A stretch of DNA of 47,773 nt. Origin: a phage. Shown piece by piece: positions 2,458 to 21,085 of this stretch. Numbering within the stretch: the first letter of the stretch is position 1; each line of letters opens with the position of its first letter. The stretch lies in assembly GCA_036604865.1 (NCBI GenBank), contig GCA_036604865.1_4856.1; one strand, given 5' to 3'. Both the position numbers and the translations under genes were made by a program. A model generated the notes under the pieces. That model searched no databases. It saw only the letters and a program-made list of their open reading frames with translations, and was not told the origin of the DNA.

Positions 2458-2504
2458 GTTTAAATCTCCTGTTGTTTGATTAGCATGATTTTAGCATATT
2501 CCTG

Positions 2505-2533
2505 TTGACGTAGATTGATGGGGCGTTTATAGT
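2505..2533 (+). promoter_or_regulatory. sigma70-type promoter TTGACG-17-TATAGT with TAGATTG motif abutting the -35 hexamer
   Basis: ttgacg at 2505-2510, 17-nt spacer, tatagt at 2528-2533; lies upstream of the plus-strand cassette 2575-4458. Confidence 0.55.
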
Positions 2534-2574
2534 TAGTGACGTAGAAACAACAATAAATGTTAGAGGTGATGAAA

Positions 2575-2748
2575 ATGGAAGGTGAAACAGAAGTTGTGGT
2601 TGTTGATGTTTTTTATCAAGCATCAGACGAAGGCATTCCAGCTCGCTGGTGCTGCGAGTTTATTCGCGATGGATGGACTGATTGTGAATATTTTGATAAC
2701 TCAGAAGATGCATATAACTATGCTTACTCACATGGATTTCAAGGATAA
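2575..2748 (+). CDS. small acidic Cys-containing protein
   Basis: ORF track 2557-2748; ATG at 2575 is best placed after SD agagg; first gene of the plus cassette. Confidence 0.45.
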   Translation: MEGETEVVVVDVFYQASDEGIPARWCCEFIRDGWTDCEYFDNSEDAYNYAYSHGFQG

Positions 2749-2751
2749 ACA

Positions 2752-3561
2752 ATGAAAACACTCAGCAAAATCTATTCAGACAAAGAAACGCGCAACGGCA
2801 TCGCTGTTAACAAAACCTATCTCGTGCCAGTGGAGCAAATATATCTGGAGCCGGGATACAACATCCGTGAAGCAGATGAGCAGCATGTGGAATATTTCGC
2901 GCAGTGCTGGGAATCAGGTCAGCCATTGCCAGCATTAACAGTTATTCCAGATGAGAAGGGAATCCGCATTCTTGATGGGCAGCATCGCTATCTCGGCGCA
3001 CTGCGTGCCATTGAGCGTGGCGCGCCAATCGCTCGCATTGAGTGTAAGGATTTCACTGGAGATGAGGCGGATAAAATTGCCTTCATGGTGTCATCCAGTC
3101 AGGGCAAGCAGCTTGACCCGTTTGAACGTGCAAAGGCTTACACGAGACTGAAAGGCTTTGGCTGGACGAATGAAGAAATCGCCAAGAAGGTGGGTCGTTC
3201 AGTATCTGACGTGCAGATGCATCTGTCACTGGGTGATGTGCCTGCGGAAGTAAAAGCGCGAATCAGTGCCGGGCAAATCAGCTATGCAAATGCCGTAGCA
3301 GTAACGCGTGAACATGGCGATGATGCGGTAAAAGTTATCGACGAGGCAGTCGAAGAGGCCAAAGCACAAGGCAAGGATAAGGTCACTGCAAAAGTGCTCA
3401 AGTCGAAAAAGATTAAGCCAGTAGACCGCCTGATTGAGTTATTGAAGCCAGCCGACCATGTAATTCTCCCCGCTGGTCATGTAGTGGCTGAGGACGAGGA
3501 ATTTATTCAGATTCCTGTTGCTGATATTCACGAGGTTATGGCAATTCTGGAGAAGATGTGA
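2752..3561 (+). CDS. ParB-like nuclease domain protein
   Basis: 269 aa; ILDGQHRYLGALRA matches the ParB N-terminal domain core (DGxHR); SD aagga upstream. Confidence 0.6.
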   Translation: MKTLSKIYSDKETRNGIAVNKTYLVPVEQIYLEPGYNIREADEQHVEYFAQCWESGQPLPALTVIPDEKGIRILDGQHRYLGALRAIERGAPIARIECKDFTGDEADKIAFMVSSSQGKQLDPFERAKAYTRLKGFGWTNEEIAKKVGRSVSDVQMHLSLGDVPAEVKARISAGQISYANAVAVTREHGDDAVKVIDEAVEEAKAQGKDKVTAKVLKSKKIKPVDRLIELLKPADHVILPAGHVVAEDEEFIQIPVADIHEVMAILEKM

Positions 3562-3752
3562 TGAGCAAGTATGAAGAGTTGGACTTGAAGATATTGCAAA
3601 TGCTTTCTGTTAAACCAACCCCTGTTTTTGATATATGGCTTAAGTTTCGTGATGATGTTAGAAACATTACGGTTATTGATCGGAGGATGCAGGTGCTGAA
3701 AAAGAAAGGTTTTGTGTACAACGTTCGTGGATGTGGTTGGGTTAAGCTATGA
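3558..3752 (+). CDS. hypothetical small protein
   Basis: 64-aa ORF with ATGA overlaps to both neighbouring genes. Confidence 0.45.
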   Translation: MMSKYEELDLKILQMLSVKPTPVFDIWLKFRDDVRNITVIDRRMQVLKKKGFVYNVRGCGWVKL

Positions 3753-3922
3753 CACCAGAACAATTCATCGAAAAACAACTTCGTGCCAAGCTGCCTGAAA
3801 TCGACCAGATGGCAATTGATGCGGCAATTCAGTATTACAAGCGCAATCAGAGCGCAAAGAAGGGTGGCATTTTTGAAGAATGCCTGAAGGTTGCAAAGCA
3901 ACACATGATTAAGGTGAAGTGA
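3749..3922 (+). CDS. hypothetical small protein (57 aa)
   Basis: Not in ORF track; fills the gap between 3752 and 3922 with start/stop overlaps on both sides; MTPEQFIEKQLRAK... Confidence 0.35.
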   Translation: MTPEQFIEKQLRAKLPEIDQMAIDAAIQYYKRNQSAKKGGIFEECLKVAKQHMIKVK

Positions 3923-4458
3923 TGAAACTAAAAATCAGCAAACTATTACTTGAATCAGCGTTAATATTTCAGGCGCGCAACGATATTCGTTACTATCTGA
4001 ACGGTATCTGCTTTATGCCTGATGGTCGCATTGCATCAACTGACGGTCATCGCGCATTTATTGGTTGCAGCCATGACAATACGCTGACAAAAAATGTGAT
4101 TATCAAGATTGGCAAATCTCCAACAAAACGCTATGACTACGCCATCATTGACACCAAGTCGAAAATTGCAACGTATCATGATGAAGCTGGCGTGATGGTT
4201 GGCGATGGTATCAGCGAAGAGATTGATGGCCGATTCCCTGACATTGACCGCGTGATACCAAAAGAAACGAAAGCAGCAGAGGAAATAGGATTCAATGCTA
4301 GCTACCTTGTTGATATTGAGAAAGTGGCGAAGCTGTTTAATCCTAAATTCTGTGGTGTCAAATTTGAACTGAATGGGAATACAAATGCCGCAGTTTGCTG
4401 TCTTAGCTCGCCATCTGGAGAGACTGCGAAGATTGTTGTTATGCCTATGCGTCTGTAG
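3922..4458 (+). CDS. hypothetical protein
   Basis: ORF track 3919-4458; ATG at 3922 overlaps the previous stop (TGATG); no domain recognised. Confidence 0.5.
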   Translation: MKLKISKLLLESALIFQARNDIRYYLNGICFMPDGRIASTDGHRAFIGCSHDNTLTKNVIIKIGKSPTKRYDYAIIDTKSKIATYHDEAGVMVGDGISEEIDGRFPDIDRVIPKETKAAEEIGFNASYLVDIEKVAKLFNPKFCGVKFELNGNTNAAVCCLSSPSGETAKIVVMPMRL

Positions 4459-4464
4459 CAATCA

Positions 4465-4490
4465 AAAGCCCCATCACGGGGCTTTTCTTT
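4465..4490. terminator. bidirectional rho-independent terminator (agcccc-atcac-ggggct plus T-run)
   Basis: Hairpin 4467-4483 flanked by A-run and T-run, between convergent genes ending at 4458 and 4493. Confidence 0.55.
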
Positions 4491-4492
4491 TA

Positions 4493-5323
4493 TCACGCCA
4501 GATAAGTATCATCCTCAAACCATGACACATATGCATTGATATTCTGCACCGAAGTATCCAGTGATGTTATGCGAAGCAAATACGTCGTATTTGGTGCCAT
4601 GATAATCTGCTCGCCGAGCTTCGCCTGCGAGTTACCCTGACCCTGATTCGATGCGTTGCCCTCACTGTACGTCGCCGCCACCGTCAGTTGCCCAATACTT
4701 GTGATCGTAGAGCCAGTCAGAAGCTGTGCCGTAACTGCCTGCGGCGTTATATCGTTTGGATTGTTAATCTCCGCCGCCGTACCGCCGGTGGCAACTGCGC
4801 CGCGATAAATTGACGCAACAACACCTTTCCCTGTATAACCAATGATGCGCTGGTTAAATATCACCTGTTTTGTTCCGGTGATAAAGATGCTGTCAAGGTT
4901 TGAGCTGCCAGCAACATCAGTTACTCTGCGCGATGCAGTGAATAGCTTTCCTTGCTTGTTAGCAAACTCTGCATAGGACTGCGCGACAACCTGACTTGAT
5001 GGTACTGATGTGGCAGATCGCCATACCAGGACTTTCAGGGATGCAATGCCAGCTGGTATTTGTGACTTAATCACCTTCAGTCGCAGCGCCACGCCATAAT
5101 AATTATTATTGTTGACGTCAATCCAGAAATCACCGGATGCAAACGGCGATACCATTACGGAAACGGAGCCGCTTGTTAATGGCTCATAGCCACCGGAAGA
5201 ATTTAGCGGCACAATTTGTACCTGCAATGCTGACCAGTCAGCTGACATGGTTTCGCTAAGCAAAACCTCTCCGTCATCCGGAGTTGCGTTTATTTCGTAC
5301 CTGACAGCCATAGAAACCCCCAA
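4493..5323 (-). CDS. putative virion structural protein
   Basis: 276-aa Ser/Thr/Gly/Val-rich ORF downstream of the capsid gene block; no catalytic motif. Confidence 0.45.
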   Translation of the reverse strand: MGVSMAVRYEINATPDDGEVLLSETMSADWSALQVQIVPLNSSGGYEPLTSGSVSVMVSPFASGDFWIDVNNNNYYGVALRLKVIKSQIPAGIASLKVLVWRSATSVPSSQVVAQSYAEFANKQGKLFTASRRVTDVAGSSNLDSIFITGTKQVIFNQRIIGYTGKGVVASIYRGAVATGGTAAEINNPNDITPQAVTAQLLTGSTITSIGQLTVAATYSEGNASNQGQGNSQAKLGEQIIMAPNTTYLLRITSLDTSVQNINAYVSWFEDDTYLA

Positions 5324-5348
5324 TAAAAAACCCGCATAATGCGGGTTC
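5321..5348 (-). terminator. rho-independent terminator on minus strand (cccgca-taa-tgcggg then T-run)
   Basis: Read on the minus strand the hairpin is followed by ttttttatt; lies between genes 5352-5549 and 4493-5323. Confidence 0.45.
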
Positions 5349-5351
5349 AGT

Positions 5352-5549
5352 TTACTCTGCTTTCTTTTTCTTTGTCGTCTTTTGTTGTGGGGTTGCTACT
5401 TCGAAAGACTTTTCCAGTTCTGGCATGACGCGCAGCTTTGACATCAGATGATCAGCAGGCTCCGTGATAACCTCGCCAAGCTGTAACTCACGAATCTTGC
5501 CTTTCTCTTTCACAAAGATTCCGCGTGCGATTACTTCGTATTTAGCCAT
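5352..5549 (-). CDS. hypothetical small protein with Lys-rich C-terminus
   Basis: 65-aa ORF in ORF track. Confidence 0.4.
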   Translation of the reverse strand: MAKYEVIARGIFVKEKGKIRELQLGEVITEPADHLMSKLRVMPELEKSFEVATPQQKTTKKKKAE

Positions 5550-5636
5550 TTAAATATCCCCATGAGTTAATGCTGGTTAATTGTAGCACACTAGTTACTA
5601 TCGTGGTAATATAAAACCAAATTAGGAGTGACTTTT

Positions 5637-6443
5637 ATGAAAACAAGAAAAGAAGCCGCGCAAGAAGCAAGGGTTGCTGGACTGAAGCAATTTGTGTGTG
5701 AATGGATTCCATGCTCCGTATGTGGTGGAACTGTGTTTTTTACAGCATCAGGCGGATGCAAGCATTGCGTATACGAAAGAACGAGAGCAAGAAGATCTAC
5801 TGCTGAATACAAAGAAAAGATGAAGCAGAAAAACAAAGAAGAGTGGTTAAAAAATAAAAACAACCCAGAATTCAAGGCTATTAAGAAAGAAAGAGATAGG
5901 GAGTTTCACAAGAAATACAAAAAAAGATTAAGCTCAGACATAAAAAAGATGGAGGAATTTCTCAGAAGAAGAAGGGATGCGTACCGTAAATGGTATTACT
6001 CTGAGAAAGGCAACAAAAAGGCTCTGGATAACGTCAAGCAATGGCAAAAGAAACACCCCCACCACGTGTTCCTAAGGAAGATGCTTGAAAGAATTGATGT
6101 GAGGTTGTCTGACGTTGCCATTGATAAAACCGTTGATGATGTGCTTGGTTATACAAAAAGTGATTTTATAAAACACATAGAGTCAACTATGGAGCCATGG
6201 ATGAGCTTTGATAATCGTAGTTGCTGGCATATAGATCACATACTTCCAGTGGACTGGTTTGTAAAAAACAACCTTGTCTACCCAGAACTGGTGAATTCAC
6301 TACATAACCTCAAAGCTGAGCCAGCAGAGTTCAACTGGAAGAAAAACAGGAAGTGGCTGCGCAAGGATATGACGCAATGGGAATTCTGCTACATGCTGCA
6401 ATATATGGTGTATGGTGAAATCAGGTATAAAGAAGGGGGCTAA
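5637..6443 (+). CDS. HNH homing endonuclease
   Basis: HNH core CWHIDHILPVDWF; N-terminal Cys cluster; ATG at 5637 after SD aggag; lone plus-strand gene inside the head block. Confidence 0.65.
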   Translation: MKTRKEAAQEARVAGLKQFVCEWIPCSVCGGTVFFTASGGCKHCVYERTRARRSTAEYKEKMKQKNKEEWLKNKNNPEFKAIKKERDREFHKKYKKRLSSDIKKMEEFLRRRRDAYRKWYYSEKGNKKALDNVKQWQKKHPHHVFLRKMLERIDVRLSDVAIDKTVDDVLGYTKSDFIKHIESTMEPWMSFDNRSCWHIDHILPVDWFVKNNLVYPELVNSLHNLKAEPAEFNWKKNRKWLRKDMTQWEFCYMLQYMVYGEIRYKEGG

Positions 6444-6454
6444 TACCCCCTTTA
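6431..6454. terminator. bidirectional terminator (ggggg-ctaata-ccccc)
   Basis: Hairpin 6435-6450 between convergent HNH and capsid genes. Confidence 0.5.
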
Positions 6455-6463
6455 AATTACATC

Positions 6464-7537
6464 TTAAGCCAATGGTGTTTGCGTCCCGTAACCATTAAAC
6501 ACTTTTGACTTCCCTGCAAAATCGCGTCTCACCTGAAGACCAAAAGCTGACCATACCATAAAGTTAAAGTTATCGTGCGGATTGTCACGGGCTGCCGCAT
6601 AGGTGGAAACAGGCTGAGCAACACGCGGACGGATGTACATGTCGTTGCGAACATAGCCAACGAAATGGTTGCCAGTCAGCAGGAAGTTGGTGCCAATCTT
6701 GCCGATGCGACCATTGCCGAACTGAGTGATGTACTGCTCAACCGTGCCGCCTTTGAAGCCAGCTGCATCAGAATACGGACGCATGAAGCTGCGACGTACT
6801 GCCGGGGAAACCCACAGAGTCACCTGCTCAAATACGTTCTGCGCATCCATAATAGCCTGGAAATCCTGATTGAAGAAGGTCACGATTTCGTCTGGCGTTG
6901 CGGTTTGCAGGTCGATATTCAGGCCGCCGGAAGCATTCAGGTTGACCTGAATAGTGTTCGGGTGGTTGGTGATACCGTAGCCAGTGTAAACGCCGTTCAC
7001 GTTCAGAGTCTGGTCGCCGGTCAGCAGATACTGCGCCATGTCAGAACGCAGGTTGAAGGTGACGTTGGCCTGATCGTCCAGCAGTGGGTCGAAGCCTTCA
7101 GACTGCATACCCAGCAGTTCGCGCCATTCGCGGCTGTAGCCAGTCTTGAAGATTGGAATCACATCGCCAGTGTAATCGTAGCGAGTTTTATCCAAATCTT
7201 CCGGTTCCTGACCAGACAGGGTGCGGACGACCTTACCAGCATCGGAAGCAATGCGGCTGATCGCCACAGTCTTACCGATATTGATGTTTGCCGCGATACC
7301 CATCAGGTCAGCCATCATATCCTGACCAGCTTCGTTGCGGAAAACGCGGGTGGTGACGTTGTCCACGTCGCGCCAGTAATCTTTCGTTACCAGCGCGGTG
7401 GCGTTAACACCGTAGGTTTTTGCCAGTTCGGCTTCTGCATTGCAGAACACTTTGCGGTCGATGGTCAGATGTTTCCACTGGTCAGCCACCACTGCGGAGT
7501 TGGCTACCAGGTCTTTGGTAAAAATAATCTTTTCCAT
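6464..7537 (-). CDS. major capsid protein
   Basis: 357-aa ORF with SD ggag, directly downstream of scaffold-like and decoration-like genes; size and position typical of HK97-fold capsid proteins. Confidence 0.6.
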   Translation of the reverse strand: MEKIIFTKDLVANSAVVADQWKHLTIDRKVFCNAEAELAKTYGVNATALVTKDYWRDVDNVTTRVFRNEAGQDMMADLMGIAANINIGKTVAISRIASDAGKVVRTLSGQEPEDLDKTRYDYTGDVIPIFKTGYSREWRELLGMQSEGFDPLLDDQANVTFNLRSDMAQYLLTGDQTLNVNGVYTGYGITNHPNTIQVNLNASGGLNIDLQTATPDEIVTFFNQDFQAIMDAQNVFEQVTLWVSPAVRRSFMRPYSDAAGFKGGTVEQYITQFGNGRIGKIGTNFLLTGNHFVGYVRNDMYIRPRVAQPVSTYAAARDNPHDNFNFMVWSAFGLQVRRDFAGKSKVFNGYGTQTPLA

Positions 7538-7539
7538 TA

Positions 7540-9419
<1,880 letters not shown>

Positions 9420-9435
9420 GGTTAACTCTCCACGG

Positions 9436-9558
9436 TTAGTTTGTGGTCGAATTATAACACAGGGAGATATAGCACCATGAGGCGGTAGCCAGTGCAAACA
9501 ATGGTGAGTCTGTGAGCGCGTATAGCGTGAGAAAGTAAGTGATAGGGATTATATTCAT
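9436..9558 (-). CDS. small hydrophobic peptide (40 aa)
   Basis: Not in ORF track; SD aggagg six nt before ATG; MNIIPITYFLTLYALTDSPLFALATASWCY... Confidence 0.25.
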   Translation of the reverse strand: MNIIPITYFLTLYALTDSPLFALATASWCYISLCYNSTTN

Positions 9559-9611
9559 GGGCTACCTCCTGATTAAATGATAGCAGCCCATGATGAACAA
9601 AAGATATACGG

Positions 9612-9760
9612 TGTTAGTCTGAAATCACATCATCCATGAATGCGAGCGCAGCACCTGACAGGCAGAACAGCGCGCCATAGCAAATCATCTGGTACAGAGT
9701 ATCAGCCTCAAATACCCTTGCGAATGCGTAGGCTGATAGTATCCACAGTAATGGAATCAT
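9612..9760 (-). CDS. small membrane protein (48 aa)
   Basis: Not in ORF track; ATGA overlap with gene 9757-9945; MIPLLWILSAYAFARVF... with a second hydrophobic segment. Confidence 0.3.
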
Positions 9761-9945
9761 GATCTACCCCTGTTTTCTTTGTAGAGTGCGTCGCAGATTT
9801 TTTGATACTCCCTCTGAAACCAGTCTATGTTCCTGTTGTAATCACTGCCTATTGCCTCAATCTTCTTTGTCGCCATTGCGCTTGCTGCATTAATCAATGC
9901 AACCTGAACCTCAATAGGCAGTTCTGGAAATTTTGGGCTGCTCAT
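9757..9945 (-). CDS. hypothetical small protein
   Basis: 62-aa ORF in ORF track; coupled to upstream gene. Confidence 0.4.
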   Translation of the reverse strand: MSSPKFPELPIEVQVALINAASAMATKKIEAIGSDYNRNIDWFQREYQKICDALYKENRGRS

Positions 9946-10268
9946 AACCCTGCCTCCTGCTTTGCGCGGTGAACGTATGACATAAACTTGCCAATCGGCA
10001 TCTCCTTGCGGATTTGCGCCAGAATAGCGCCGTGCAGCATCCTTTCTTCGCCAAAATACAGCTTATCAAGACGGGTTTTAATAAGTGCTCGCGTGCGCTT
10101 CATGTGGTCGCGTGCCTTAAGTGCTTTCTCATGCCATACGCGATCATTCTTCTTATCAGCATACTGCAGTTGACGATCGACAGTTTCGATTTCAAACGCC
10201 AGCTGCACGTCGTAATCTTCAAGCTGAATGATGTCTGCCTTCATAATGTCATTTAATTGGATAATCAT
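9942..10268 (-). CDS. hypothetical protein
   Basis: 108-aa ORF, charged, no motif recognised. Confidence 0.45.
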   Translation of the reverse strand: MIIQLNDIMKADIIQLEDYDVQLAFEIETVDRQLQYADKKNDRVWHEKALKARDHMKRTRALIKTRLDKLYFGEERMLHGAILAQIRKEMPIGKFMSYVHRAKQEAGL

Positions 10269-11559: not shown

Positions 11560-11619
11560 TTATAATTTCTCCCGTAGAATTTGATAACAACGTGCTCAAC
11601 GCACAGATAACCTTCATCT

Positions 11620-11817: not shown

Positions 11818-11844
11818 TTCCACATCACCTTTTTCGTTGTGGTA

Positions 11845-11890
11845 CAATCTACGTCAATAAGTATTGACTAAATGATGTAGATTGGTCAAC
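11845..11890. promoter_or_regulatory. divergent regulatory region with TTGACGTAGATTG motif (minus orientation) and TTGACT plus GATGTAGATTG (plus orientation)
   Basis: caatctacgtcaa at 11845-11857 is the reverse complement of the motif at 2505 and 14624; promoter geometry here is not canonical. Confidence 0.4.
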
Positions 11891-11917
11891 AATAATTTTC
11901 GAGAAGGAGTAGTAAAT

Positions 11918-12112
11918 ATGCCAAGACCACGACGCGAGCCGATGGACATTATCACCAGCATTGTGGAGAAGCGGCAGCCGCTGACACTCCGTGATGTTCG
12001 CTACTTTGCCCGTTGCTATGTGGCACTGGCTGATATGCCGAAAGATGAGATGTACGATTTGATTCGTGAGAATTTTGATGTTGATGCAAATAATCGGGTG
12101 ACGATGAAATGA
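11918..12112 (+). CDS. hypothetical small protein
   Basis: ORF track 11882-12112; ATG at 11918 has SD aaggag eight nt upstream. Confidence 0.45.
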   Translation: MPRPRREPMDIITSIVEKRQPLTLRDVRYFARCYVALADMPKDEMYDLIRENFDVDANNRVTMK

Positions 12113-12693
12113 AAAAGTGGAAATATCTGAAAGGTTGTGAGGATGATTTTGCTGGCCATAACGCGGCTTATCTTGTAGTTAAGTCAGGAAGGACTGGTGA
12201 TATTTTCTATCTAAGCAAATATTATGCTGGTCGCATTGAAGTGATTGAGGGTTGCGGGGATGTAGTCATTGCATACCGCGAGCCAATTGCCGACGAACAA
12301 GACCTCAACGAATGCATTGGCGCACCGGAAGCCGATGTGAAGCGAGGTGGTTTTATTCCCAACACCACATTTGTTGGCGATTTCCTGCCTGAAGGATATC
12401 CGACTTTTGGACACACTAATTGCCGATGCAAGTCAGCTAAAGTTGGCGAGATTCACATTGACGGGAAACGTGATAAGGCGAAACTTGCAAACAAATACCT
12501 GCACGAGATTAAGCCGGGTTTATTTGTTGACGTGTACGACGTGCTTATGGCATGGAATGTCACCAACCCTGCATTGCAGCACTTAATCAAGAAGGCATTA
12601 CAGGCTGGCGAACGCGGACATAAATCACGCGAACAGGATTTGCAAGACATCATTGACAGCGCAATTCGCGCAAAAGAACTGGAGAGTAAGTAA
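12109..12693 (+). CDS. hypothetical protein
   Basis: 194-aa ORF with ATGA overlaps to both neighbours; no domain recognised. Confidence 0.5.
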   Translation: MKKWKYLKGCEDDFAGHNAAYLVVKSGRTGDIFYLSKYYAGRIEVIEGCGDVVIAYREPIADEQDLNECIGAPEADVKRGGFIPNTTFVGDFLPEGYPTFGHTNCRCKSAKVGEIHIDGKRDKAKLANKYLHEIKPGLFVDVYDVLMAWNVTNPALQHLIKKALQAGERGHKSREQDLQDIIDSAIRAKELESK

Positions 12694-13001
12694 TGGCATT
12701 TTGCGACATCACCATCGCGCAACGAAACGCGAACTACACCAACATCGCTGACACTTCCGCACAACTGGTATCACTGAACAGCGACGGCAGCGCAGTGCTA
12801 AAAATCGGCACGGAAACCGCGCAATTCATCGTGCAGAACCTGTCGCAGGCAAACGCAAAGCAGGTGCTGATTAGCACGGGTAGCGTTCTTTTTCTTGCTG
12901 GCAATTACAATGCGCCGAACCTTGAGTGTTCGCTGGTGCGCATTGTTGAAACTACGGTTGAGGAATCTGCTGATGAACCAGCAACATCAACAGCAGAGTG
13001 A
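12693..13001 (+). CDS. hypothetical protein
   Basis: 102-aa ORF, start overlaps previous stop. Confidence 0.45.
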   Translation: MAFCDITIAQRNANYTNIADTSAQLVSLNSDGSAVLKIGTETAQFIVQNLSQANAKQVLISTGSVLFLAGNYNAPNLECSLVRIVETTVEESADEPATSTAE

Positions 13002-13128
13002 ATCGCCAAAGCCATCGGCATGGTGTGAGAAAATGGAACGCAACGCAAAGGATGGTGATGAAGCGTATGCTTATTTTCAGCTGAAGCAGATGTGGAAGCA
13101 GAGAGAAGAGTCGGAACACACCAGTTGA
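12973..13128 (+). CDS. hypothetical small Gln-rich protein
   Basis: ORF track 12895-13128; ATG at 12973 after SD gaggaa; overlaps the end of the previous gene. Confidence 0.3.
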   Translation: MNQQHQQQSESPKPSAWCEKMERNAKDGDEAYAYFQLKQMWKQREESEHTS

Positions 13129-13130
13129 AA

Positions 13131-13155
13131 CAAGCCCCTTATGGGGCTTTTTTAT
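13131..13155. terminator. rho-independent terminator (agcccc-ttat-ggggct then ttttttatt)
   Basis: Hairpin 13133-13148 and T-run; terminates the plus cassette; overlaps the 3-prime end of the spanin gene. Confidence 0.55.
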
Positions 13156-13630
13156 TGCGTAATGAGTCGTACTGAAGCTGACAACTCAATCCAGCGTTGT
13201 AATACCTGTCAGCTTCTTCCGCTGTTCGTCGATAAGCATCGTTGCTTTCTTCAAGCATCCCTCCAAGCATAATGATGACCTCGCGGGTTGTCTTGCCAGA
13301 TGACTCAGTTCCGGTATATTGGCTTGCGAGCTGGCGGATTCTATCGAGTTCCCCGCGCATCCGCTTAGCACTGGACTCAGCATTAACAGCATCATTACGC
13401 GCAGCATCAATCCTTTGTTGTGCGTCGGCCTGAATCTTTTGCAGTTCTGCATTGCGTCTTTGTTCCTCTTGTTCGTCTGCTGCCTTCCGTTCTGCGATGG
13501 CTTTTGCATATCCAGCGGCATATTGTTGCTCACCATAGCTGGATACCTTATTTGCTACCCACAATGCGCCAGCAGCAACAATTATAATAATTGCCAGTGG
13601 TCGCCAGTATTTAGCGAGAATCGACATCAT
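13139..13630 (-). CDS. i-spanin (Rz-like)
   Basis: N-terminal membrane anchor WRPLAIIIIVAAGALWVA then long coiled-coil; directly downstream of endolysin; contains an embedded lipoprotein ORF. Confidence 0.6.
   Translation of the reverse strand: MMSILAKYWRPLAIIIIVAAGALWVANKVSSYGEQQYAAGYAKAIAERKAADEQEEQRRNAELQKIQADAQQRIDAARNDAVNAESSAKRMRGELDRIRQLASQYTGTESSGKTTREVIIMLGGMLEESNDAYRRTAEEADRYYNAGLSCQLQYDSLRNKKAP
13186..13407 (-). CDS. o-spanin (Rz1-like lipoprotein) embedded in the i-spanin gene
   Basis: Alternate frame inside 13139-13630; signal peptide with lipobox LSGC (MLRVMMLLMLSPVLSGCAG); ORF track 13186-13536, start trimmed to Met at 13407. Confidence 0.55.
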   Translation of the reverse strand: MLRVMMLLMLSPVLSGCAGNSIESASSQANIPELSHLARQPARSSLCLEGCLKKATMLIDEQRKKLTGITTLD

Positions 13631-13850
13631 TGCGCAGCCTCCTGTTTTCCTTTCTCATGCCGTGCATTTTGCCGAACATTGATAACACGAGTACGGAATA
13701 GCTTATCCCTTTAACCACCGAATCTGGTATCTCGGATTTTAGGTCGTCTGGCATAAACATCCATACATGCGTCATGGAGTCAGGCCACAGCTCAAGGTAT
13801 GAGCAAAATGAAAGCCAGACACCAATGAACCAGTTGCTTAGCTTTTTCAT
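13611..13850 (-). CDS. putative holin-like membrane protein
   Basis: 79 aa; two hydrophobic segments and a basic C-terminal tail (KMHGMRKENRRLRND); sits between endolysin and spanin. Confidence 0.35.
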   Translation of the reverse strand: MKKLSNWFIGVWLSFCSYLELWPDSMTHVWMFMPDDLKSEIPDSVVKGISYSVLVLSMFGKMHGMRKENRRLRNDVDSR

Positions 13851-14311
13851 GCCACAGCTCCGCCAGCCTCTTTGTATACCTGAATCAGCTTATCCAGTTT
13901 CTGCTCATGCTGACCATAACCAGCGCCCGGTAATGAAGCCCAGCGGGAGCGGCATTTATGGATAGCACCAGCAATGCGACCAGCCTCAATATCAGCAGTG
14001 GCCTTGCATTCACGGATTAGCTGCATTGCAATGGCGTCCTGCGATGCGGGGGAGAAGTCAGGCAGGCGCAGTTGCTTTTTGTATGCATCATAAAACTTAG
14101 CCAGCACCTGATAGCGCCCGGCGGCGGTGGATTTGATGCCCAGCTTAGGCAGGCTAATCAGCTTGCGCGGGTGATCAGAATAGTCAGTAAACAGTGAGCC
14201 GCCGACAATCACATCATAACCATGATTATTGGTTTTCTGTCGCCCGTTATCAGTCCCCTCGCTGTACGCCAGCATATCCAGAAACGCCTTCATGTTTTTG
14301 CTAATAGCCAT
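13847..14311 (-). CDS. endolysin, lambda R-like lytic transglycosylase
   Basis: KAFLDMLAYSEGTDNGRQKTNNHGYDVIVGG...DYSDHPRK...WASLPGAGYGQ closely parallels phage lambda R including the catalytic Glu in SEGT; ORF track start trimmed to Met at 14311. Confidence 0.8.
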   Translation of the reverse strand: MAISKNMKAFLDMLAYSEGTDNGRQKTNNHGYDVIVGGSLFTDYSDHPRKLISLPKLGIKSTAAGRYQVLAKFYDAYKKQLRLPDFSPASQDAIAMQLIRECKATADIEAGRIAGAIHKCRSRWASLPGAGYGQHEQKLDKLIQVYKEAGGAVA

Positions 14312-14579
14312 ACCAGTAAACCTCTTTTTCAGCTTTGCGTTTTGCTTTGTTGTCGGTCTTCTCGCCCCACACAATAAAGTGCGCAACGGCACATGAGAAG
14401 CAGCGGAGATTGTGTTTCTTCAGGAGCGTTGACTTGCGGAACGTGTCAATGCCAATGTCAGTGGCAAGGCTTGTCAGCGCATCAAACTGATTCTGTGTTG
14501 TCTCGGTAGTGATGTAAGGCGATATATCAACGGCATCGGTGATTCCAAGCGTCTCCACGCCGCGTTGCGATAGTTTCAT
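14301..14579 (-). CDS. hypothetical protein upstream of endolysin
   Basis: 92-aa ORF with strong SD aggagg five nt before ATG; not obviously membrane-spanning. Confidence 0.45.
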   Translation of the reverse strand: MKLSQRGVETLGITDAVDISPYITTETTQNQFDALTSLATDIGIDTFRKSTLLKKHNLRCFSCAVAHFIVWGEKTDNKAKRKAEKEVYWYGY

Positions 14580-14623
14580 TCTGCCTCCTGTTCAAATAAT
14601 GATTAATTCTATCACAACAGGTA

Positions 14624-14652
14624 TTGACGTAGATTGAGTGGTGGTGCATAGT
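14624..14652 (+). promoter_or_regulatory. sigma70-type promoter TTGACG-17-CATAGT with TAGATTG abutting the -35
   Basis: ttgacg at 14624-14629, catagt at 14647-14652; same architecture as the promoter at 2505. Confidence 0.55.
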
Positions 14653-14680
14653 ATCTACATCAAATAGAGAGGTGGTAAAC

Positions 14681-14872
14681 ATGAGTACGCTTGAATTGGT
14701 TGAACGCTCGATAATTACGCTGTGGGTTCTTTCTTTGGCTTTTGGTTTGTGCGCGTTCTATAAACCATGGGCATGGCAAAGAAAAAGCTACTTCGCCATA
14801 ATTTACGGCCCATTCTGCGTTATGAGCATGATTGCGGCGCTATTCTTCGTTATTGATTTGGTGTGGTCATGA
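14681..14872 (+). CDS. small two-helix membrane protein
   Basis: ORF track 14672-14872; ATG at 14681 after SD agagaggtgg; two hydrophobic helices. Confidence 0.5.
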   Translation: MSTLELVERSIITLWVLSLAFGLCAFYKPWAWQRKSYFAIIYGPFCVMSMIAALFFVIDLVWS

Positions 14873-15015
14873 TGGTAATGGTCAAATTCAAAGAAAACGG
14901 ACGCTGCGGAATGTTCGGACTTGAGCAAATCAAAATCCGCCCATGCGGCAAGGTGGCTGCGCCATTTGGCCTGTTGCAGATGCGTGAATGCGAAATTATT
15001 GAATATATTAAGTGA
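14869..15015 (+). CDS. hypothetical small Cys-containing protein (48 aa)
   Basis: Not in ORF track; ATGA overlap with the previous gene; MMVMVKFKENGRCGMFG... Confidence 0.3.
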   Translation: MMVMVKFKENGRCGMFGLEQIKIRPCGKVAAPFGLLQMRECEIIEYIK

Positions 15016-15023
15016 GGTTGGTG

Positions 15024-15323
15024 ATGAAAGAATTTAAAGGTACGCATGGCCCGTGGAATTACTGCGCTGATGAGCCAGATTGGGTTACAGATAGCAATGA
15101 CAATATAGCTGTAGCAAGGGTCACTCGTTACAACGCGGATGCGGAAGCTCAACATGCAAACGCAAAATTAATCGCAGCATCACCGGAACTGCTCGCAGCA
15201 CTCCAGCAATTACTGGAAATCTACGACGACAACTCCGACAAAGTCTGGACAACATCAAGCAAGCGTCGCGCTCTGGGTAATGCGCGTGCGGCGGTTAATA
15301 AGGCATTGGGAGAAACAAAATGA
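15024..15323 (+). CDS. hypothetical protein
   Basis: ORF track 15012-15323; ATG at 15024 after SD gaggttggtg. Confidence 0.5.
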   Translation: MKEFKGTHGPWNYCADEPDWVTDSNDNIAVARVTRYNADAEAQHANAKLIAASPELLAALQQLLEIYDDNSDKVWTTSSKRRALGNARAAVNKALGETK

Positions 15324-15964
15324 AACTTATCGACTTGTTAGTTCAAGAATTGCCTAAGCGTGGCGGGTGGCCTAATGGTGCGGAATACTGTCATCTAACA
15401 CAATACGATCGCCACTGCTTAACCATTGTTTTTTCTCACAAGCAGGTTGGCACAGGAAATAATTCAACAATATCAAAGGAAGAAATGGTTTTTTCTGGTA
15501 TTGGTTACCTTGGCGATACATTGTATGGATGCATAGTTACAGCTAAAGAATACGAATCCGCACTCTCAGCATCGAAAAAGCCAACATGGAACGGAGAAGG
15601 TCTTCCTCCGGTTGGTGCAAAAGTAGAATTCTTCATTAATCCAAAGTTAAGATACCGCAATGCCTGGATTCCTGATGCCGGCACTGAAATGGAAGTTGTG
15701 GCGCACAAAACAACAACGGACGGGAACGATGTTGCTGTTTGCTATTGGGATGATGATGGCGCTGGTCGGTCATGCTGCTTCGTACCGGAAAGCCTAAAAC
15801 CACTACGCACAGAAGCAGATAAGAAACGAGATGCCGCGGCTGAGGCCATTGATCGGTATATGCCTGAATTTATCCCTGACACACCAAATGAGTATTATCA
15901 CGCAAAGAAAATTTACGACGCCATCGCAGCAGGCAAGATTCCCGGCGTGAAACTGGATGATTAA
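15320..15964 (+). CDS. hypothetical protein
   Basis: 214-aa ORF, ATGA overlap with the previous gene; no domain recognised. Confidence 0.5.
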   Translation: MKLIDLLVQELPKRGGWPNGAEYCHLTQYDRHCLTIVFSHKQVGTGNNSTISKEEMVFSGIGYLGDTLYGCIVTAKEYESALSASKKPTWNGEGLPPVGAKVEFFINPKLRYRNAWIPDAGTEMEVVAHKTTTDGNDVAVCYWDDDGAGRSCCFVPESLKPLRTEADKKRDAAAEAIDRYMPEFIPDTPNEYYHAKKIYDAIAAGKIPGVKLDD

Positions 15965-16040
15965 AACAATATTCAGCGTCGTAGAGATATTGTGCTACGC
16001 GATAATAATATTTGTTCTGTGTATGCTGATAAGATAAAAC

Positions 16041-16070
16041 CAAGCCCTCACTTCGAGGGCTTTTTGTTTG
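16041..16070. terminator. rho-independent terminator (gccctc-acttc-gagggc then tttttgtttg)
   Basis: Hairpin 16044-16060 and T-run after the plus cassette; overlaps the 3-prime end of minus gene 16048-16998. Confidence 0.5.
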
Positions 16071-16998
16071 CCGATTGCCATGCCTCACGCTGCTTATCAA
16101 GCCTTTCCTGCGATGACTCAAGAATGACTGGTTTTCCATCCATTAACAATGCTGGAGTTTGAGCGCAGTGGCAATTATATCTATTGCCATTCTCGCTATA
16201 GAACGTGTCAATCTCTTCTGGCGTGTAAAACCGCCCGTGTCTCGCCGCGTGAGTCTGGCGTGTTGTGCGCATTAATGCTGATTGCCACAACATCACTGTT
16301 TCAATACCTAATTCCTCGCGCGCCTCAATGACCTCCCGCCTGTTTGCCTGCCGCAGCGTTCCGGTTATTTCAGTCTGCGCTAACTGCTTCGCGTAACTGT
16401 GAGATACATCAACACGCTTGGCGATGTCAGCCTCAACATCACGAGGATTAGCACCACGAGCAATGCCTTCCATAATGACAGATGCCAGTTGCTGACGGGA
16501 ATAATCACTCAATCCGCGCCAGTCTGAGTAACCTTGCGTGTACGCCAGTTGCAGTCGACTCAGGTAAGGCTCACTGTAGAGTATTGCAGCAATCGGCCTC
16601 TGCTCGGCGTAAACCGGAGACAGACTTGACAGTTCTGAGTTTGCCTTCTGCGTTCCGGCCTGATACGCATCACCAATGAATACGTTAGCCCACATCATGC
16701 CGTGACCGAAATCATCACCTTCAAGCAGGATTTCATCAATCAGCGCCTGTAATTCATCCATGAAAGTGGCGGCCCGCGCACTGCTGAAGTCATAGAAATA
16801 CAGGCCACTTGATTCTGCATTAGCCTGACTACCAGGAATAGTGCGAAACAACTCAAGCGCACGACTCCTTAGTTGTTTGTATTTGCGCGTTATCACCTTA
16901 TCCATTTTCGAAAGGCGAGTCGCAGCGCCTAACGGGTCGGTAAGGCTCTGCGATATGCGCGGTTGCGGAAGTCTGGCGTTAAACCGGAGTATCTTCAT
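16048..16998 (-). CDS. head morphogenesis protein (SPP1 gp7 / Mu F-like minor head protein)
   Basis: 316-aa ORF in the conserved terminase-portal-head morphogenesis order; assignment from size, position and general resemblance. Confidence 0.5.
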   Translation of the reverse strand: MKILRFNARLPQPRISQSLTDPLGAATRLSKMDKVITRKYKQLRSRALELFRTIPGSQANAESSGLYFYDFSSARAATFMDELQALIDEILLEGDDFGHGMMWANVFIGDAYQAGTQKANSELSSLSPVYAEQRPIAAILYSEPYLSRLQLAYTQGYSDWRGLSDYSRQQLASVIMEGIARGANPRDVEADIAKRVDVSHSYAKQLAQTEITGTLRQANRREVIEAREELGIETVMLWQSALMRTTRQTHAARHGRFYTPEEIDTFYSENGNRYNCHCAQTPALLMDGKPVILESSQERLDKQREAWQSANKKPSK

Positions 16999-17899
16999 TT
17001 CCCTTTTCCTCCATGCTTTAAAACCAAATCAGCCGCCTCGTGGGTTGATATATTGAAAAATTCGCTCGCCCCATCAAATCCGGTTAATCCTGCATTTTTA
17101 TGTTTTATTTCTTTATGTATCATTGATTCAGCCCTTCTCGCGTCAGCCCATGATGGGAATGAGTGCTCAGCAACCACGGTAACAGTTTTCCCTGCTGATT
17201 TTGATATGCTCTTCATTCTTCTTTTGGTGTTGTTGCTTATCCCGATCTTGCACATGCCATCCATTTCAGCCACATATAAGTTTGCAGGCTTAAACCCATA
17301 AGCAGTGCATTTATTGCAACCTGATCCCCTTAAGTGTGAGTTTGGTGTCTGGTAAAAATCGCCATGGATATGACATGTTATACATACTTTCCTTGAGCTT
17401 TTCACATAATTAACTTCTCGTATGAGTATCTCTTCCCATGAATTGCTTTTGCTTTTGTTATGAATGATGCTTTATTGTCGCTGAATTTGTCGGACAGATG
17501 CTCAAGTTTGCACAAGGGGCAACCATTACCTGATAAATGGTTGGCTGGTTGCTGGGAAAAATCACCGTGCTTTTGGCATGTTATTACCACCTTTCGGTGA
17601 GTTCCGGTATATACGCACTTGTCATATGAATATTTATCACCATGGACCATTTTAGCCTTGGAGATAAATTCATCATTTGATGCCATCAATTTTCTTGCCC
17701 GAACATCTCTAGCGCAAAGTTCGCAGCCGTAGCCAGCGAGATGGCACTCCGCTTTTTGAGTAAAGTCGCCATGTTTTCTGCACGTTATTGTTACTTGATT
17801 CTTCGTTCCGGAGAATGCCAATTTATCATAAATGTACTTGTCACCATGTTTTTGCTTGGCGCGAGAAATGAAGTCTTCCGTGGTGAGTCTTTTAGCCAT
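16995..17899 (-). pseudogene. T5orf172 (GIY-YIG-like) domain protein with three N-terminal Cys/His repeats, split into two ORFs by a single-nucleotide frame change near 17403
   Basis: Repeats FI(S/T)(R/K)AK..HG.KY.Y.K....(11 aa)..ITC..HGDF.Q....HL.G.GC..C occur three times; the third spans the ORF junction with correct spacing only after a -1 shift at ATGTGAAAAG; C-terminal LYVAEMDGMCKIGISNN..RR resembles the T5orf172 core. Confidence 0.5.
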
Positions 17900-17993
17900 G
17901 ATTAACCCCGTAGTAGGTTCGTAGATTGAGGATGCAGCAGGGTGTCTACGTTCACCTTTTCGTCTGGCCGGACTAGCTGCACTTGTGATTATA

Positions 17994-19418
<1,425 letters not shown>

Positions 19419-19422
19419 TCAC

Positions 19423-19454
19423 CAATAAAAAATCCCATCACGTTGGATGGGATT
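19423..19454 (-). terminator. rho-independent terminator on minus strand (atcccatc-acgtt-gatgggat then T-run)
   Basis: Read on minus strand the hairpin 19432-19453 is followed by ttttttatt; located just upstream of the portal gene. Confidence 0.5.
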
Positions 19455-19488
19455 ATAACACGAGCTTGCAGTGGCTATGGTTGATGGC

Positions 19489-19722
19489 TTATTCTCTCCG
19501 TGATGGCATTGCAATCATCGGTTGCGTTTGTCTTTGCATGATAGATAATAGCTCACCCTTGTAATGTTCTGTAATTTCATTTTGCCCTTTCATGTAAATC
19601 AAGATGGCTTCCTGTTCAGTGACAATTCCTTGCTTAAACAAGGTTATTATTTTCCTTGCCATAGTATCGCAAAGAGACAATTCTTCAAGGTATTGAATCG
19701 GCGTTTCGCAGTTATCCATCAC
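19489..19722 (-). CDS. hypothetical small protein
   Basis: 77-aa ORF in ORF track. Confidence 0.4.
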   Translation of the reverse strand: MMDNCETPIQYLEELSLCDTMARKIITLFKQGIVTEQEAILIYMKGQNEITEHYKGELLSIMQRQTQPMIAMPSRRE

Positions 19723-19847
19723 TCCACCTTTTCCAGTTTATCAATAACAATATCGAACCCTTGTGATTGGAATCTGGCGGCATTCTCGTCCGCCATAAAT
19801 ACTTCGAAAGCATGAGCTGAGTTTGACGCAGCTATCACCATAGACAT
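19719..19847 (-). CDS. hypothetical small protein (42 aa)
   Basis: Not in ORF track; ATGA overlap with gene 19489-19722. Confidence 0.25.
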   Translation of the reverse strand: MSMVIAASNSAHAFEVFMADENAARFQSQGFDIVIDKLEKVE

Positions 19848-19902
19848 TTTGCGGCAACTTCACCACCACCAAGCACTTCAGCATGAATAAAATAAACGCT
19901 CA

Positions 19903-20094
19903 TCACTCAATCTCCTCACCATTAACCCAGCGCTGCAGGACTTCGATAAGCTGCGCGGCCTGATGTTTGTCGATGCCGATAGAGTTAACATCATCACCTT
20001 CACGGAATGAAGTGAGCATAATGATATTGTAATCACCAAAACTATCACTGACTTGCAGTTCATAGCAATTTTTCGTTTCATCAATAATCATCAC
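19903..20094 (-). CDS. hypothetical small acidic protein
   Basis: 63-aa ORF in ORF track. Confidence 0.4.
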   Translation of the reverse strand: MMIIDETKNCYELQVSDSFGDYNIIMLTSFREGDDVNSIGIDKHQAAQLIEVLQRWVNGEEIE

Positions 20095-20095
20095 A

Positions 20096-20302
20096 TCACC
20101 CTCTCAAAAAATCATTCTTGCAGCAGATACCCTTGTACCCACGCTTCTCTTGCAGGTTAACGAAAACATCATCCAGAACGCGCAGCAGGAAATCCTCGTC
20201 GATGTCATACCGACGGCAAATCACATCATCAGGCACACCAGCCCGCGCCAGTGAATAAACCTGCTCTTTTTCCTCCTGTGTGAATCCTGCATAGCTGCGC
20301 AT
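20096..20302 (-). CDS. hypothetical small protein
   Basis: ORF track 20096-20434; Met at 20302 (MRSYAGFTQEEKE...) keeps the promoter-motif cluster intergenic. Confidence 0.35.
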   Translation of the reverse strand: MRSYAGFTQEEKEQVYSLARAGVPDDVICRRYDIDEDFLLRVLDDVFVNLQEKRGYKGICCKNDFLRG

Positions 20303-20329
20303 AGTGATATCTCCGGTAAACCTGATGTA

Positions 20330-20430
20330 GATTATACTATGCGCTCGGTGTAGATTGGTCAAGTGTGGTGATGCGGATTTATCAACAATAATAAATGTTG
20401 ACGTAGATATGATGGTGATGTAGATTGTAA
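20330..20430. promoter_or_regulatory. cluster of four GTAGAT(T) motif copies including promoter TTGACG-17-TAGATT (20398-20426)
   Basis: gatgtagatta, ggtgtagattgg, gacgtagatat and gatgtagattgt lie within 100 bp; last two form a -35/-10 pair with 17-nt spacer. Confidence 0.5.
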
Positions 20431-20471
20431 TCATTGATGCAGCAATGGTGCTGCTGAAAAAAGAGGGCTGG

Positions 20472-21056
20472 ATGATGGGATGCGATATTCATTTATACAA
20501 AGAGAAAATGATTGATGGGAAATGGGTTTCCGCTGACACATGGGTTAAGGAAGATGACTGGGATGGCGCAGAATACTTTGAGGTGCCTTGGCGCGAAAGA
20601 TTCACCGATCGCAACTACAATCTCTTTGGCCTTTTGTGTGGCGGGGTTAGATCTGAGCATCCTTACTCATTCACCGAGCGTGGAATACCGTTTGATGTAT
20701 GCACAGAGATTGCAGAAAATATTAAACGCTGGGGTTGTGACGGCCATTCTCATAGCTATCTTTATCTGCATGAGTTGAAATGCATGTTGGAATTTCTTGA
20801 AACTGTCACGGTGAATGTTTCAGGAATGAAAGATAAAGACCAACTGGAAGAGCTGCGTAAGTCAATCGCAAGCGGCAACCCTGACTGGAAACTATTGTGG
20901 CCATACTGTGGATGGGCAAGCAGTGATGAACACGAAGAGTTCGACATTGATGTTCCAGCAAATGTAATGCTTGGCGATGGCCTTAAAAAAATCATCTCTG
21001 GATTTGATGGCATTGATGGCGAAAATCATCGAATCGTGTTCTGGTTCGATAACTAA
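20472..21056 (+). CDS. hypothetical protein (moron-like insert between terminase and portal genes)
   Basis: ORF track 20445-21056; ATG at 20472 after SD aaagaggg; own promoter and terminator; opposite strand to the structural genes. Confidence 0.5.
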   Translation: MMGCDIHLYKEKMIDGKWVSADTWVKEDDWDGAEYFEVPWRERFTDRNYNLFGLLCGGVRSEHPYSFTERGIPFDVCTEIAENIKRWGCDGHSHSYLYLHELKCMLEFLETVTVNVSGMKDKDQLEELRKSIASGNPDWKLLWPYCGWASSDEHEEFDIDVPANVMLGDGLKKIISGFDGIDGENHRIVFWFDN

Positions 21057-21061
21057 AAGAT

Positions 21062-21085
21062 AAAGCCCTCCAATGAGGGCTTTTC
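21062..21085. terminator. bidirectional rho-independent terminator (agccctc-caat-gagggct)
   Basis: Hairpin 21064-21082 with flanking A-run and T-run, between gene 20472-21056 and the terminase gene end. Confidence 0.55.

Follow-up and report, generated by a model that had tools for sequence, protein, structure and literature searches.

Lambdoid phages carry morons in the sense of Hendrix and Juhala, genes with their own promoter and terminator that lie between late genes, have a divergent composition, are present in some relatives and absent from others, and often serve host interaction. T4-like phages carry promoter-early stem-loop (PeSL) cassettes in hyperplastic regions, where repeated sigma-70-type promoters and stem-loop terminators flank small, non-essential open reading frames (ORFs), most of them of unknown function (PMC2839356, PMC4122927). 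It is in these regions that close relatives differ by insertions, deletions and replacements, and the repeats have been proposed to mediate modular shuffling (PMC2839356, PMC4122927). Here we describe four plus-strand cassettes (C1 to C4) in a stretch of phage DNA of 47,773 nucleotides (contig GCA_036604865.1_4856.1 of GenBank assembly GCA_036604865.1; hereafter the window), which is the complete genome of a virulent Skatevirus-like siphophage. We give a probability of about 60% to the interpretation that the cassettes are sigma-70-driven, early-type antisense units in fixed late-gene slots that act as recombination-prone cargo bays.

Bases 1-127 of the window are the same as its last 127 bases, an overlap of the circular assembly, so the unit length is ~47.65 kb. 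The region 2400-21200 is matched by 213 phage records. The top matches are ~90% identical across 60-77% of this query and comprise the Salmonella phages VSt472 and Skate, the Shigella phages Sf11 and DS8, and the E. coli phages C1, swi2 and Bas77-81. The BASEL-II paper describes Bas77-81 as small virulent siphoviruses of 46-48 kb in a cluster made up mainly of the genus Skatevirus, and is silent on opposite-strand cassette architecture. Literature searches found no account of these cassettes or of their promoter motif in Skatevirus papers. The annotated Bas77 genome contains opposite-strand gene groups at matching places, with other content, and no gene between the terminase and the next gene. 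For the comparison with relatives we used loci from IMG/VR, 69 centred on the MuF head-morphogenesis gene and 79 centred on the ParB-like gene of C1, in three tiers of MuF identity (91-98%, 76-78% and 64-66%).

Promoter regions and terminators of the cassettes

A reading of the window from the sequence alone (hereafter the sequence-only reading) had reported four plus-strand ORF runs that interrupt a minus-strand block. All four are present (Table 1), and GC skew is positive exactly across these stretches. Chance ORFs were considered and ruled out by the PHROG families, the strand skew and conservation at 37-99% identity. The same reading had each cassette start at a TAGATTG-type promoter. The starts it gave at 2505, 14624 and 20398 are exact, but the one given for C2, 11845, is a copy of the motif on the minus strand. 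The promoters read TTGACG-N17-TATAGT at 2505 (C1), TTGACT-N18-AACAAT at 11864 (C2), TTGACG-N17-CATAGT at 14624 (C3) and TTGACG-N17-TAGATT at 20398 (C4), from which transcription would start near 2540, 11900, 14659 and 20433, respectively.

Two related motifs are strongly enriched in the window. GTAGATTG occurs in 10 copies against 1.4 expected, and TTGACGTAGATTG, allowing up to two mismatches, likewise in 10 copies against 1.4; neither count was reached in any of 100 shuffles. Copies of the TTGACGTAGATTG type are nearly always intergenic and adjoin a gene start. Each slot would open with a short promoter region active in both directions, at whose centre one 8-bp GTAGATTG abuts a TTGAC -35 element. 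In the forward orientation (TTGACGTAGATTG) it would form the cassette promoter, and on the opposite strand a promoter-like site, either TTGACCAATCTAC or CAATCTACGTCAA-N11-12-TGnTAnAAT, would restart the next late-strand segment. We rejected the idea that TAGATT is always the -10 hexamer, since in C1 and C3 it follows the -35 element, and the -10 is a different hexamer, 17 nt downstream of that element.

The four regions follow this plan in different ways. At C1 the plus strand reads TTGACG (2505)-TAGATTG-N10-TATAGT (2528-2533), followed by GACGTAGAAAC (2538-2548) in the 5' untranslated region (5' UTR), and the minus strand carries CAATCTACGTCAA-N11-TGcTAAAAT (2517 to 2488) ahead of a minus-strand gene with its start at 2457. 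The C3 region is built similarly, with TTGACG (14624)-TAGATTG-N10-CATAGT-ATCTAC on the plus strand and CAATCTACGTCAA-N12-TGaTAGAAT (14636 to 14606) on the minus strand, upstream of lysN and the lysis genes. These minus-strand sites, CAATCTACGTCAA-N11-12-TGnTA(G/A)AAT, have the form of an extended -10 promoter with the 8-mer at the -35 position, and they use the DNA of the cassette's TTGACGTAGATTG on the other strand. At C4 the plus strand reads TTGACG (20398)-TAGATA-N11-TAGATT, and the minus strand TTGACCAATCTAC (20362)-N10-TAGTAT-AATCTAC, for the unit g20096-portal-MuF. The two C2 promoters overlap fully, so that the -35 of each lies upon the -10 of the other; the minus-strand promoter is TTGACCAATCTAC (11889)-N-AATACT (11860), the spacer common to both contains GTAGATTG (11877-84), and an inverted copy (11845-52) falls within the minus-strand 5' UTR. 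TTGACCAATCTAC is an exact 13-mer found twice on the late strand, at 20362 and 11889, with a -10 lying 17-18 nt further on. All four cassette starts carry a promoter-like site on the late strand as well.

Across divergent relatives (~140 loci, three identity tiers) the motif blocks are invariant and the spacers vary. The C2 promoter layout is kept in relatives down to 52% c2a identity, and the minus-strand site at 20362 is conserved with or without a cassette in the slot. The promoter family extends to a site at 29542-29593 upstream of the helicase gene at 29614, which has the GACGTAGAAAC 5' UTR in common with C1, to a site at 26056 upstream of a leftward small-ORF operon, to a further plus-strand cassette at 45248 (C5), and to a site at 47001 upstream of a tRNA-Met unit. 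In total there are eight forward-orientation sites on cassette or early units and four late-strand sites with the same 8-mer.

At the other end, each slot closes at a terminator that it has in common with the converging late gene. All four are GC hairpins with energies of -12 to -13.7 kcal/mol and form a single family, AAGCCC[C/T]-loop-[A/G]GGGCTT. Strong bidirectional termination, as the sequence-only reading had it, holds for T3 and T4, which have good U-tracts both ways; for T1 and T2 the minus-strand U-tracts are weaker. The late region thus laid out appears, from its motifs, to consist of several separately promoted segments, with each cassette bounded by a bidirectional node at one end and a convergent terminator at the other. 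The c3d stop codon and T3 are separated by an untranslated spacer of ~80 nt (15965-16041), kept among close relatives, that contains CGTAGAGAT and an AT-rich inverted repeat and could encode a small RNA or a promoter.

Cassette slots and cargo in related phages

The slots are kept in ~140 related loci, in all three tiers and down to ~65% MuF identity, and the slot layout between virion and lysis segments is a conserved property of the whole Skatevirus/Roufvirus-like clade. Slots C1-C3 are occupied in nearly all loci, and slot 3 is collapsed in only 3 of 67. Comparing cassette content across relatives, as the sequence-only reading had proposed, showed that the slots and several of their genes are clade-universal and that the other positions vary. 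The fixed backbone comprises the ParB/KorB-like c1b, c1d, the clamp fragment c1e, c2a, c2b and c3d, with likely roles in DNA handling or host takeover. The remaining genes, c1a, c1c, c2c, c2d, c3a-c and c4, make up the accessory set of this genome, which is small, lower in GC and rotating. GC content is 0.39-0.44 for the variable genes, 0.45-0.49 for the backbone cassette genes and 0.48-0.52 for the structural genes.

In close relatives the structural genes align in 100% of loci, and coverage drops to 4-44% inside the cassettes; within C1, c1a aligns in 7% and c1c in 14% of loci, and ParB with c1d-c1e in 100%. The first C1 gene changes immediately 3' of the invariant P_C1 5' UTR and ribosome-binding site (RBS). 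Families also occur in more than one slot, the c3c family in slot 3 in 18 loci and in the C1 upstream slot in 32, and the c1c family in the C2 slot in 7 loci and in the C1 slot in 7. The promoter/5' UTR/RBS and terminator blocks are near-invariant between genomes and paralogous between slots. We infer that these conserved blocks act as portable homology arms, so that recombination would exchange the genes they enclose.

The cargo of the relatives was assessed with representative proteins from the variable positions of other genomes. The first gene after P_C1, in this window c1a, is an acidic anti-restriction protein (phrog_14587) in 11 loci. The C2 slot holds a Tad2-like Thoeris anti-defence domain (PF11195) in 6 loci, and an HNH endonuclease is found in the C2 and C1 slots (6 loci). 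Between ParB and c1d there is a C5 DNA methylase in 5 loci and an N6/N4 DNA methylase in 4, and the C4 slot holds a PNK/HAD-like protein in 15. The sequence-only reading had pointed to the cassettes as the most likely places for counter-defence functions. This is borne out for the variable positions, where relatives have known counter-defence genes, but not for the conserved backbone, whose genes belong to the core of the clade.

C4 is a presence/absence feature between TerL and the next gene, and cassette-free relatives have 79-95 nt there. Homologues of c4 were found in six genomic contexts, among them early-left regions of prophages. One is directly after N in a lambdoid pL operon; others are beside a CI-type repressor, a ParB-helix-turn-helix gene and Lar, directly before Tad3 and near Acb3, and before a C5 methylase. 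The Tad3 context is on an unrelated 58.9-kb phage contig (L151, positions 5001-9532; JGI contig Ga0395905_0000425), where the c4 homologue is directly upstream of the Tad3-family gene and YAcAr and Acb3-family genes lie within 4 kb of it. This segment looks like an anti-defence island.

Cassette proteins

The sequence-only reading had recognised almost no motif in the products, and 12 of the 14 proteins indeed lack an annotated function, because only c1b passes the Pfam gathering score and c1e has beta-clamp homology in the Protein Data Bank (PDB). Apart from these characterised proteins and c3a, which has no PHROG match, the cassette proteins belong to PHROG families of unknown function. The profile searches that the reading had suggested gave no match to an anti-defence family.

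c1b matches Pfam HTH_ParB (PF17762, 2.5e-11) and KorB (PF08535, 7e-6) and, in the PDB, Spo0J (1.6e-12, residues 40-202) and KorB (2.5e-3; 8qa8/8qa9). As to an N-terminal ParB/Srx domain with the arginine-rich (GxxR) nucleotide-binding motif, the Spo0J alignment begins at residue 40 and DGQHRYLGA is present, but there is no Pfam ParBc match at E<=0.01. No palindromic parS/OB site and no KorA-like partner were found for c1b, and no ParA-like ATPase was seen among ten replication-region ORFs scanned, the other window ORFs being outside that scan. A resemblance of GACGTAGAAAC to a parS half-site was considered and dropped as too loose. c1e aligns only to DnaN residues ~136-301 (PDB phmmer 4e-15), with Pfam DNA_pol3_beta_3 below cutoff, and by its sequence is a clamp fragment that falls short of a complete ring subunit. 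In PHROG (phrog_3007) and in several GenBank records it is called a RusA-like Holliday junction resolvase; we rejected this label, as there is no RusA Pfam match and the homology is to DnaN.

Mosaicism is seen within proteins too. c2b has a conserved N-terminal domain joined to one of two alternative C-terminal domains, DUF6378 in most relatives and, in this window, the other, helical type with a 51-aa insert. c3c has a variable N-terminus and a conserved C-terminus. For c3d, an N-terminal alpha/beta domain, an SH3/Tudor-like barrel and C-terminal helices are predicted with moderate confidence. The single C4 product had been given as 195 aa; the ORF stands, and its true start, judged from 1170 homologues, is 20475, which makes 193 aa. 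The c4 family is widespread, has invariant C3, D4, H6, E10, R46 and H91, and shows no known fold. PDB sequence and profile searches returned nothing significant for c4, c3d, c2b and c2a. The acidity of c1a resembles that of the relatives' anti-restriction protein at the same position, which is suggestive and proves nothing.

Table 1 Coordinates of the cassettes, their genes and regulatory regions, and of one sporadic plus-strand gene (aa, amino acids; pI, isoelectric point; TM, transmembrane). The last column gives the related loci that hold the feature; family counts below ~3 loci are not trustworthy, because greedy ORF calling in related loci made some spurious antisense ORFs.
Feature	Coordinates	Strand	Description	Related loci
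C1 promoter region	2488..2548	.	bidirectional; blocks invariant, spacers variable	67/79
C1	2575-4458	+	five ORFs	
c1a	2575..2748	+	57 aa, pI 4.05, net charge -11, GC 0.40; phrog_37822 (unknown function); variable first gene	3/79
c1b	2752..3561	+	269 aa, ParB/Noc/KorB-family DNA-binding protein; 97-100% identical in close tier, 80-82% in distant; more conserved than MuF	79/79
c1c	3558..3752	+	64 aa, basic, GC 0.39; variable position, DNA methylases there in relatives	
c1d	3749..3922	+	57 aa, conserved backbone gene	72/79
c1e	3919..4458	+	179 aa, beta sliding clamp fragment homologue	55/79
T1	4464..4486	.	AAAAGCCCC-ATCAC-GGGGCTTTT; strong on plus strand, minus-strand U-tract weaker	
Endonuclease VII/HNH-like gene	5628..6443	+	271 aa, phrog_1035, GC 0.40; sporadic	11/79
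C2 promoter region	11845..11893	.	overlapping divergent promoters for C2 and minus-strand block 9614-11817	
C2	11918-13128	+	four ORFs	
c2a	11918..12112	+	64 aa, conserved first gene	63/70
c2b	12109..12693	+	194 aa, mosaic protein	59/63 (family)
c2c + c2d	12693..13128	+	variable; c2c 102 aa, acidic; c2d ~31 aa (13033-13128)	c2c 22-27 (of 70 for 27), method-dependent; c2d 21/70
T2	13132..13149	.	AAGCCCC-TTAT-GGGGCTT; strong on plus strand, weaker on minus	
C3 promoter region	14606..14660	.	back-to-back C3/lysis promoters; conserved in all three identity tiers	
C3	14681-15964	+	four ORFs, beginning with one for a 63-aa two-TM protein	
c3a, c3b, c3c	14681..15323	+	63 aa with two TM helices, rare; 48 aa; 103 aa	c3a 3; c3b 11-31 and c3c 13-18, both method-dependent
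c3d	15320..15964	+	214 aa, last gene of C3; conserved yet fast-evolving	57/66
T3	16042..16062	.	bidirectional; overlaps final codons of MuF head-morphogenesis gene	
C4 promoter region	20334..20426	.	back-to-back promoters, from motif positions and conservation	
C4	20475-21056	+	single gene	
c4	20475..21056	+	193 aa, net charge -17, single-gene moron	1/57
T4	21062..21083	.	bidirectional; common to c4 and TerL	

Other units and neighbouring features

The list of interruptions in the sequence-only reading was incomplete, as it missed the plus-strand gene at 5628-6443, an insert at 16995-18058 and a plus-strand tRNA-Met unit at 47001-47750. The first sits between the capsid gene and a 65-aa gene (5352-5549), and its product is probably a homing endonuclease. 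The second consists of two same-strand (minus) ORFs between the portal and MuF genes in ~10 of 70 loci, one for a protein with a T5orf172/MUG113 (GIY-YIG-like) domain and one for a zinc-finger/DUF723 protein, the second of which overlaps the portal 3' end by 64 nt; it looks like a homing-endonuclease insertion. The third is a sixth plus-strand unit, located between tail genes. It begins with TTGACA-N17-TAGATT at 47001-47029 and contains a tRNA-Met (47642-47718, plus strand) ~610 nt downstream of the promoter, with its own terminator and no clear protein gene in between. An Rfam search gave this tRNA as its sole match, and PADLOC gave zero matches.

C5 (45248-46231, plus strand) encodes a superinfection-immunity membrane protein (PF14373), a NinX-like protein and a DUF551 protein, gene types that temperate phages usually have in their early or nin regions. 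The minus strand itself had been taken as one late block. This is partly so, but the block at 9614-11817 is regulatory and anti-restriction in content and not structural, with a MarR-family regulator (10642-11130, phrog_1687; conserved in 61 of 70 loci) and a Lar-like restriction-alleviation protein (11120-11377). Because this non-structural minus-strand block is preceded by a TTGACCAATCTAC promoter of its own, strand and expression class are not equivalent. The endolysin is encoded by two overlapping minus-strand ORFs (14301-14579 and 13847-14392), as also annotated in Bas77, which could reflect a split gene or a frameshift. A non-coding region of 400 bp that separates divergent early operons (26060-26460) has iteron-like repeats GTGGGGCAGGT that flank a very AT-rich stretch and include the inverted repeat GTGGGGCAGGTnGGTTGCCCCAC at ~26118-26140 and 26343-26368; it is a candidate replication origin.

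Discussion

The sequence-only interpretation of these cassettes is partly supported by our analysis. It had named, as the finding that would count against it, universally conserved core genes with established replication or morphogenesis roles. Several cassette genes are conserved core genes of the clade, but none has such an established role. In the reading we favour, host sigma-70 RNA polymerase would drive the four units and the conserved blocks at their ends would permit exchange of what lies between them. The early-type label is given because the promoters resemble those of the helicase gene and the leftward operon, and because of the gene content. A counter-defence role of the window's own cargo is what we infer from the genes that relatives hold in the same slots.

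Several observations weigh against the cargo-bay reading. A generic sigma-70 scan found 32 sites against 29.4 expected in shuffles, no enrichment, so the promoter evidence rests on the specific motif. Early timing would follow from promoter similarity and gene content, and promoter type alone cannot separate early from late, as the late-strand promoters are near-consensus sigma-70 sites with the same 8-mer. Recombination at the conserved blocks would likewise follow from the breakpoints. The minus-strand U-tracts are weak at T1 and T2. The cassettes are not simply accessory, because several of their genes are universal and highly constrained. Lastly, 0 of the 14 cassette proteins match a described anti-defence or anti-restriction family in general profile libraries or PADLOC.

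A tentative alternative, possible though not the one we favour, is that GTAGATTG is mainly the operator of a phage regulator, c1b or the MarR-like protein encoded at 10642-11130, that times the early-to-late switch at the strand-switch promoters. Orientation relative to the -35 would then distinguish cassette promoters (forward) from late-strand promoters (reverse), and this arrangement could coexist with the cargo-bay reading. The 8-mer is conserved where RNA polymerase has no need of it, just after the -35 element and just after the -10 or at +1, as well as at the -35 position of the extended -10 late-strand promoters, and its orientation tracks promoter class. RK2 KorB is a ParB-family global repressor, and c1b has a KorB-like helix-turn-helix and a PDB match to KorB; the MarR-family regulator is the other candidate and is conserved in 61 of 70 loci. 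Against an operator, we found no palindrome typical of ParB or MarR dimers, the spacing of GTAGATTG copies is irregular (17, 17, 25 and 33 bp), and TAGATT may simply be the -10 hexamer. Co-occurrence cannot discriminate between c1b and the MarR-like protein, because both are found in all tiers. It is possible but unlikely that GTAGATTG is the operator of a global regulator, most plausibly c1b and otherwise the MarR-like protein, and that its orientation beside the -35 decides between early and late behaviour of each strand-switch promoter. If true, a single regulator acting on a single short site at the bidirectional nodes would control the full temporal programme of this virulent siphophage. 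A second possibility, likewise unlikely, is that c4 and the acidic c1a are new counter-defence proteins.

It is also improbable that the cassettes are core DNA-metabolism or partition operons, with the unknown genes as ordinary replication accessories and the orientation as a neutral historical inversion. The C1 backbone of a ParB-family and a beta-clamp-like protein, the extreme conservation of the ParB-like protein and the clade-wide presence of c2a, c2b and c3d would fit this explanation. However, no ParA-type partner was recognised among the ten ORFs of the replication region that were scanned, the clamp homologue is a fragment only, c3d is fast-evolving, no DNA of the region varies more than the cassette interiors, and relatives have anti-defence cargo there. 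Classical morons, in the sense of recent horizontal acquisitions that arrived independently, each with a promoter and terminator of its own, and that share no logic, are a poor explanation overall: the short gap in cassette-free relatives, the single occurrence among 57 loci, the lower GC and the homologues of c4 in unrelated phages and prophages fit C4, but C1-C3 contain universal genes, are occupied in nearly all loci of three tiers (slot 3 collapsed in 3 of 67), and have regulatory parts that belong to the phage backbone and were not brought with the cargo, since promoters and terminators are paralogous to one another and the promoters also to that of the helicase gene.

Skatevirus-like phages are common and now form part of the BASEL reference collection, and their regulation and accessory genes are unstudied. 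Their accessory genes are collected in a few slots marked by one promoter and terminator family, which provides a rule for finding counter-defence candidates, by which c1a, c3a-c and c4 would be selected here. The conserved promoter and terminator blocks would serve as landing pads for engineering these phages. The bidirectional nodes with a shared 8-mer offer a testable model of divergent early and late transcription in a small virulent phage without its own RNA polymerase.

Compared with anti-defence islands (Tad2, Tad3, Acb3), the slots are alike in that those of relatives hold Tad2-like, anti-restriction and methylase genes, and one c4 homologue adjoins Tad3 near Acb3; they differ in that no cassette gene of this window falls in a described anti-defence family. 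The RK2 KorB/ParB system resembles this phage in combining a ParB-family helix-turn-helix protein with many promoters that share a short element at variable positions. It differs in that neither a palindromic operator nor a KorA-like partner was found here, and the link between c1b and GTAGATTG is put forward as a hypothesis. With morons the cassettes share, at the sequence level, a promoter and terminator of their own, and C4 fits the moron description well. C1-C3, in contrast, are multi-gene slots found throughout the clade that contain universal genes and take their regulatory elements from the backbone, and moron expression in the prophage state is inapplicable because the phage is virulent. 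The likeness to PeSL cassettes lies in the many near-identical, dispersed sigma-70-like promoter copies and in gene replacement breakpoints that coincide with repeats, as seen at the P_C1 5' UTR/RBS, in the coverage of close relatives and in the hopping of families between slots. Unlike PeSL, which is one fused short motif, promoter and terminator are here 0.7-2 kb apart at the ends of a unit, the units are multi-gene and lie antisense within the structural and lysis genes of a siphophage of small size, the promoter regions are bidirectional, with a putative restart site on the late strand, and each slot keeps backbone genes that are fixed. Taken together, the cassettes are best read as a blend of two ideas, that of the moron, with which C4 agrees fully, and that of PeSL, and as differing from both in their multi-gene antisense organization, bidirectional nodes and fixed genes.

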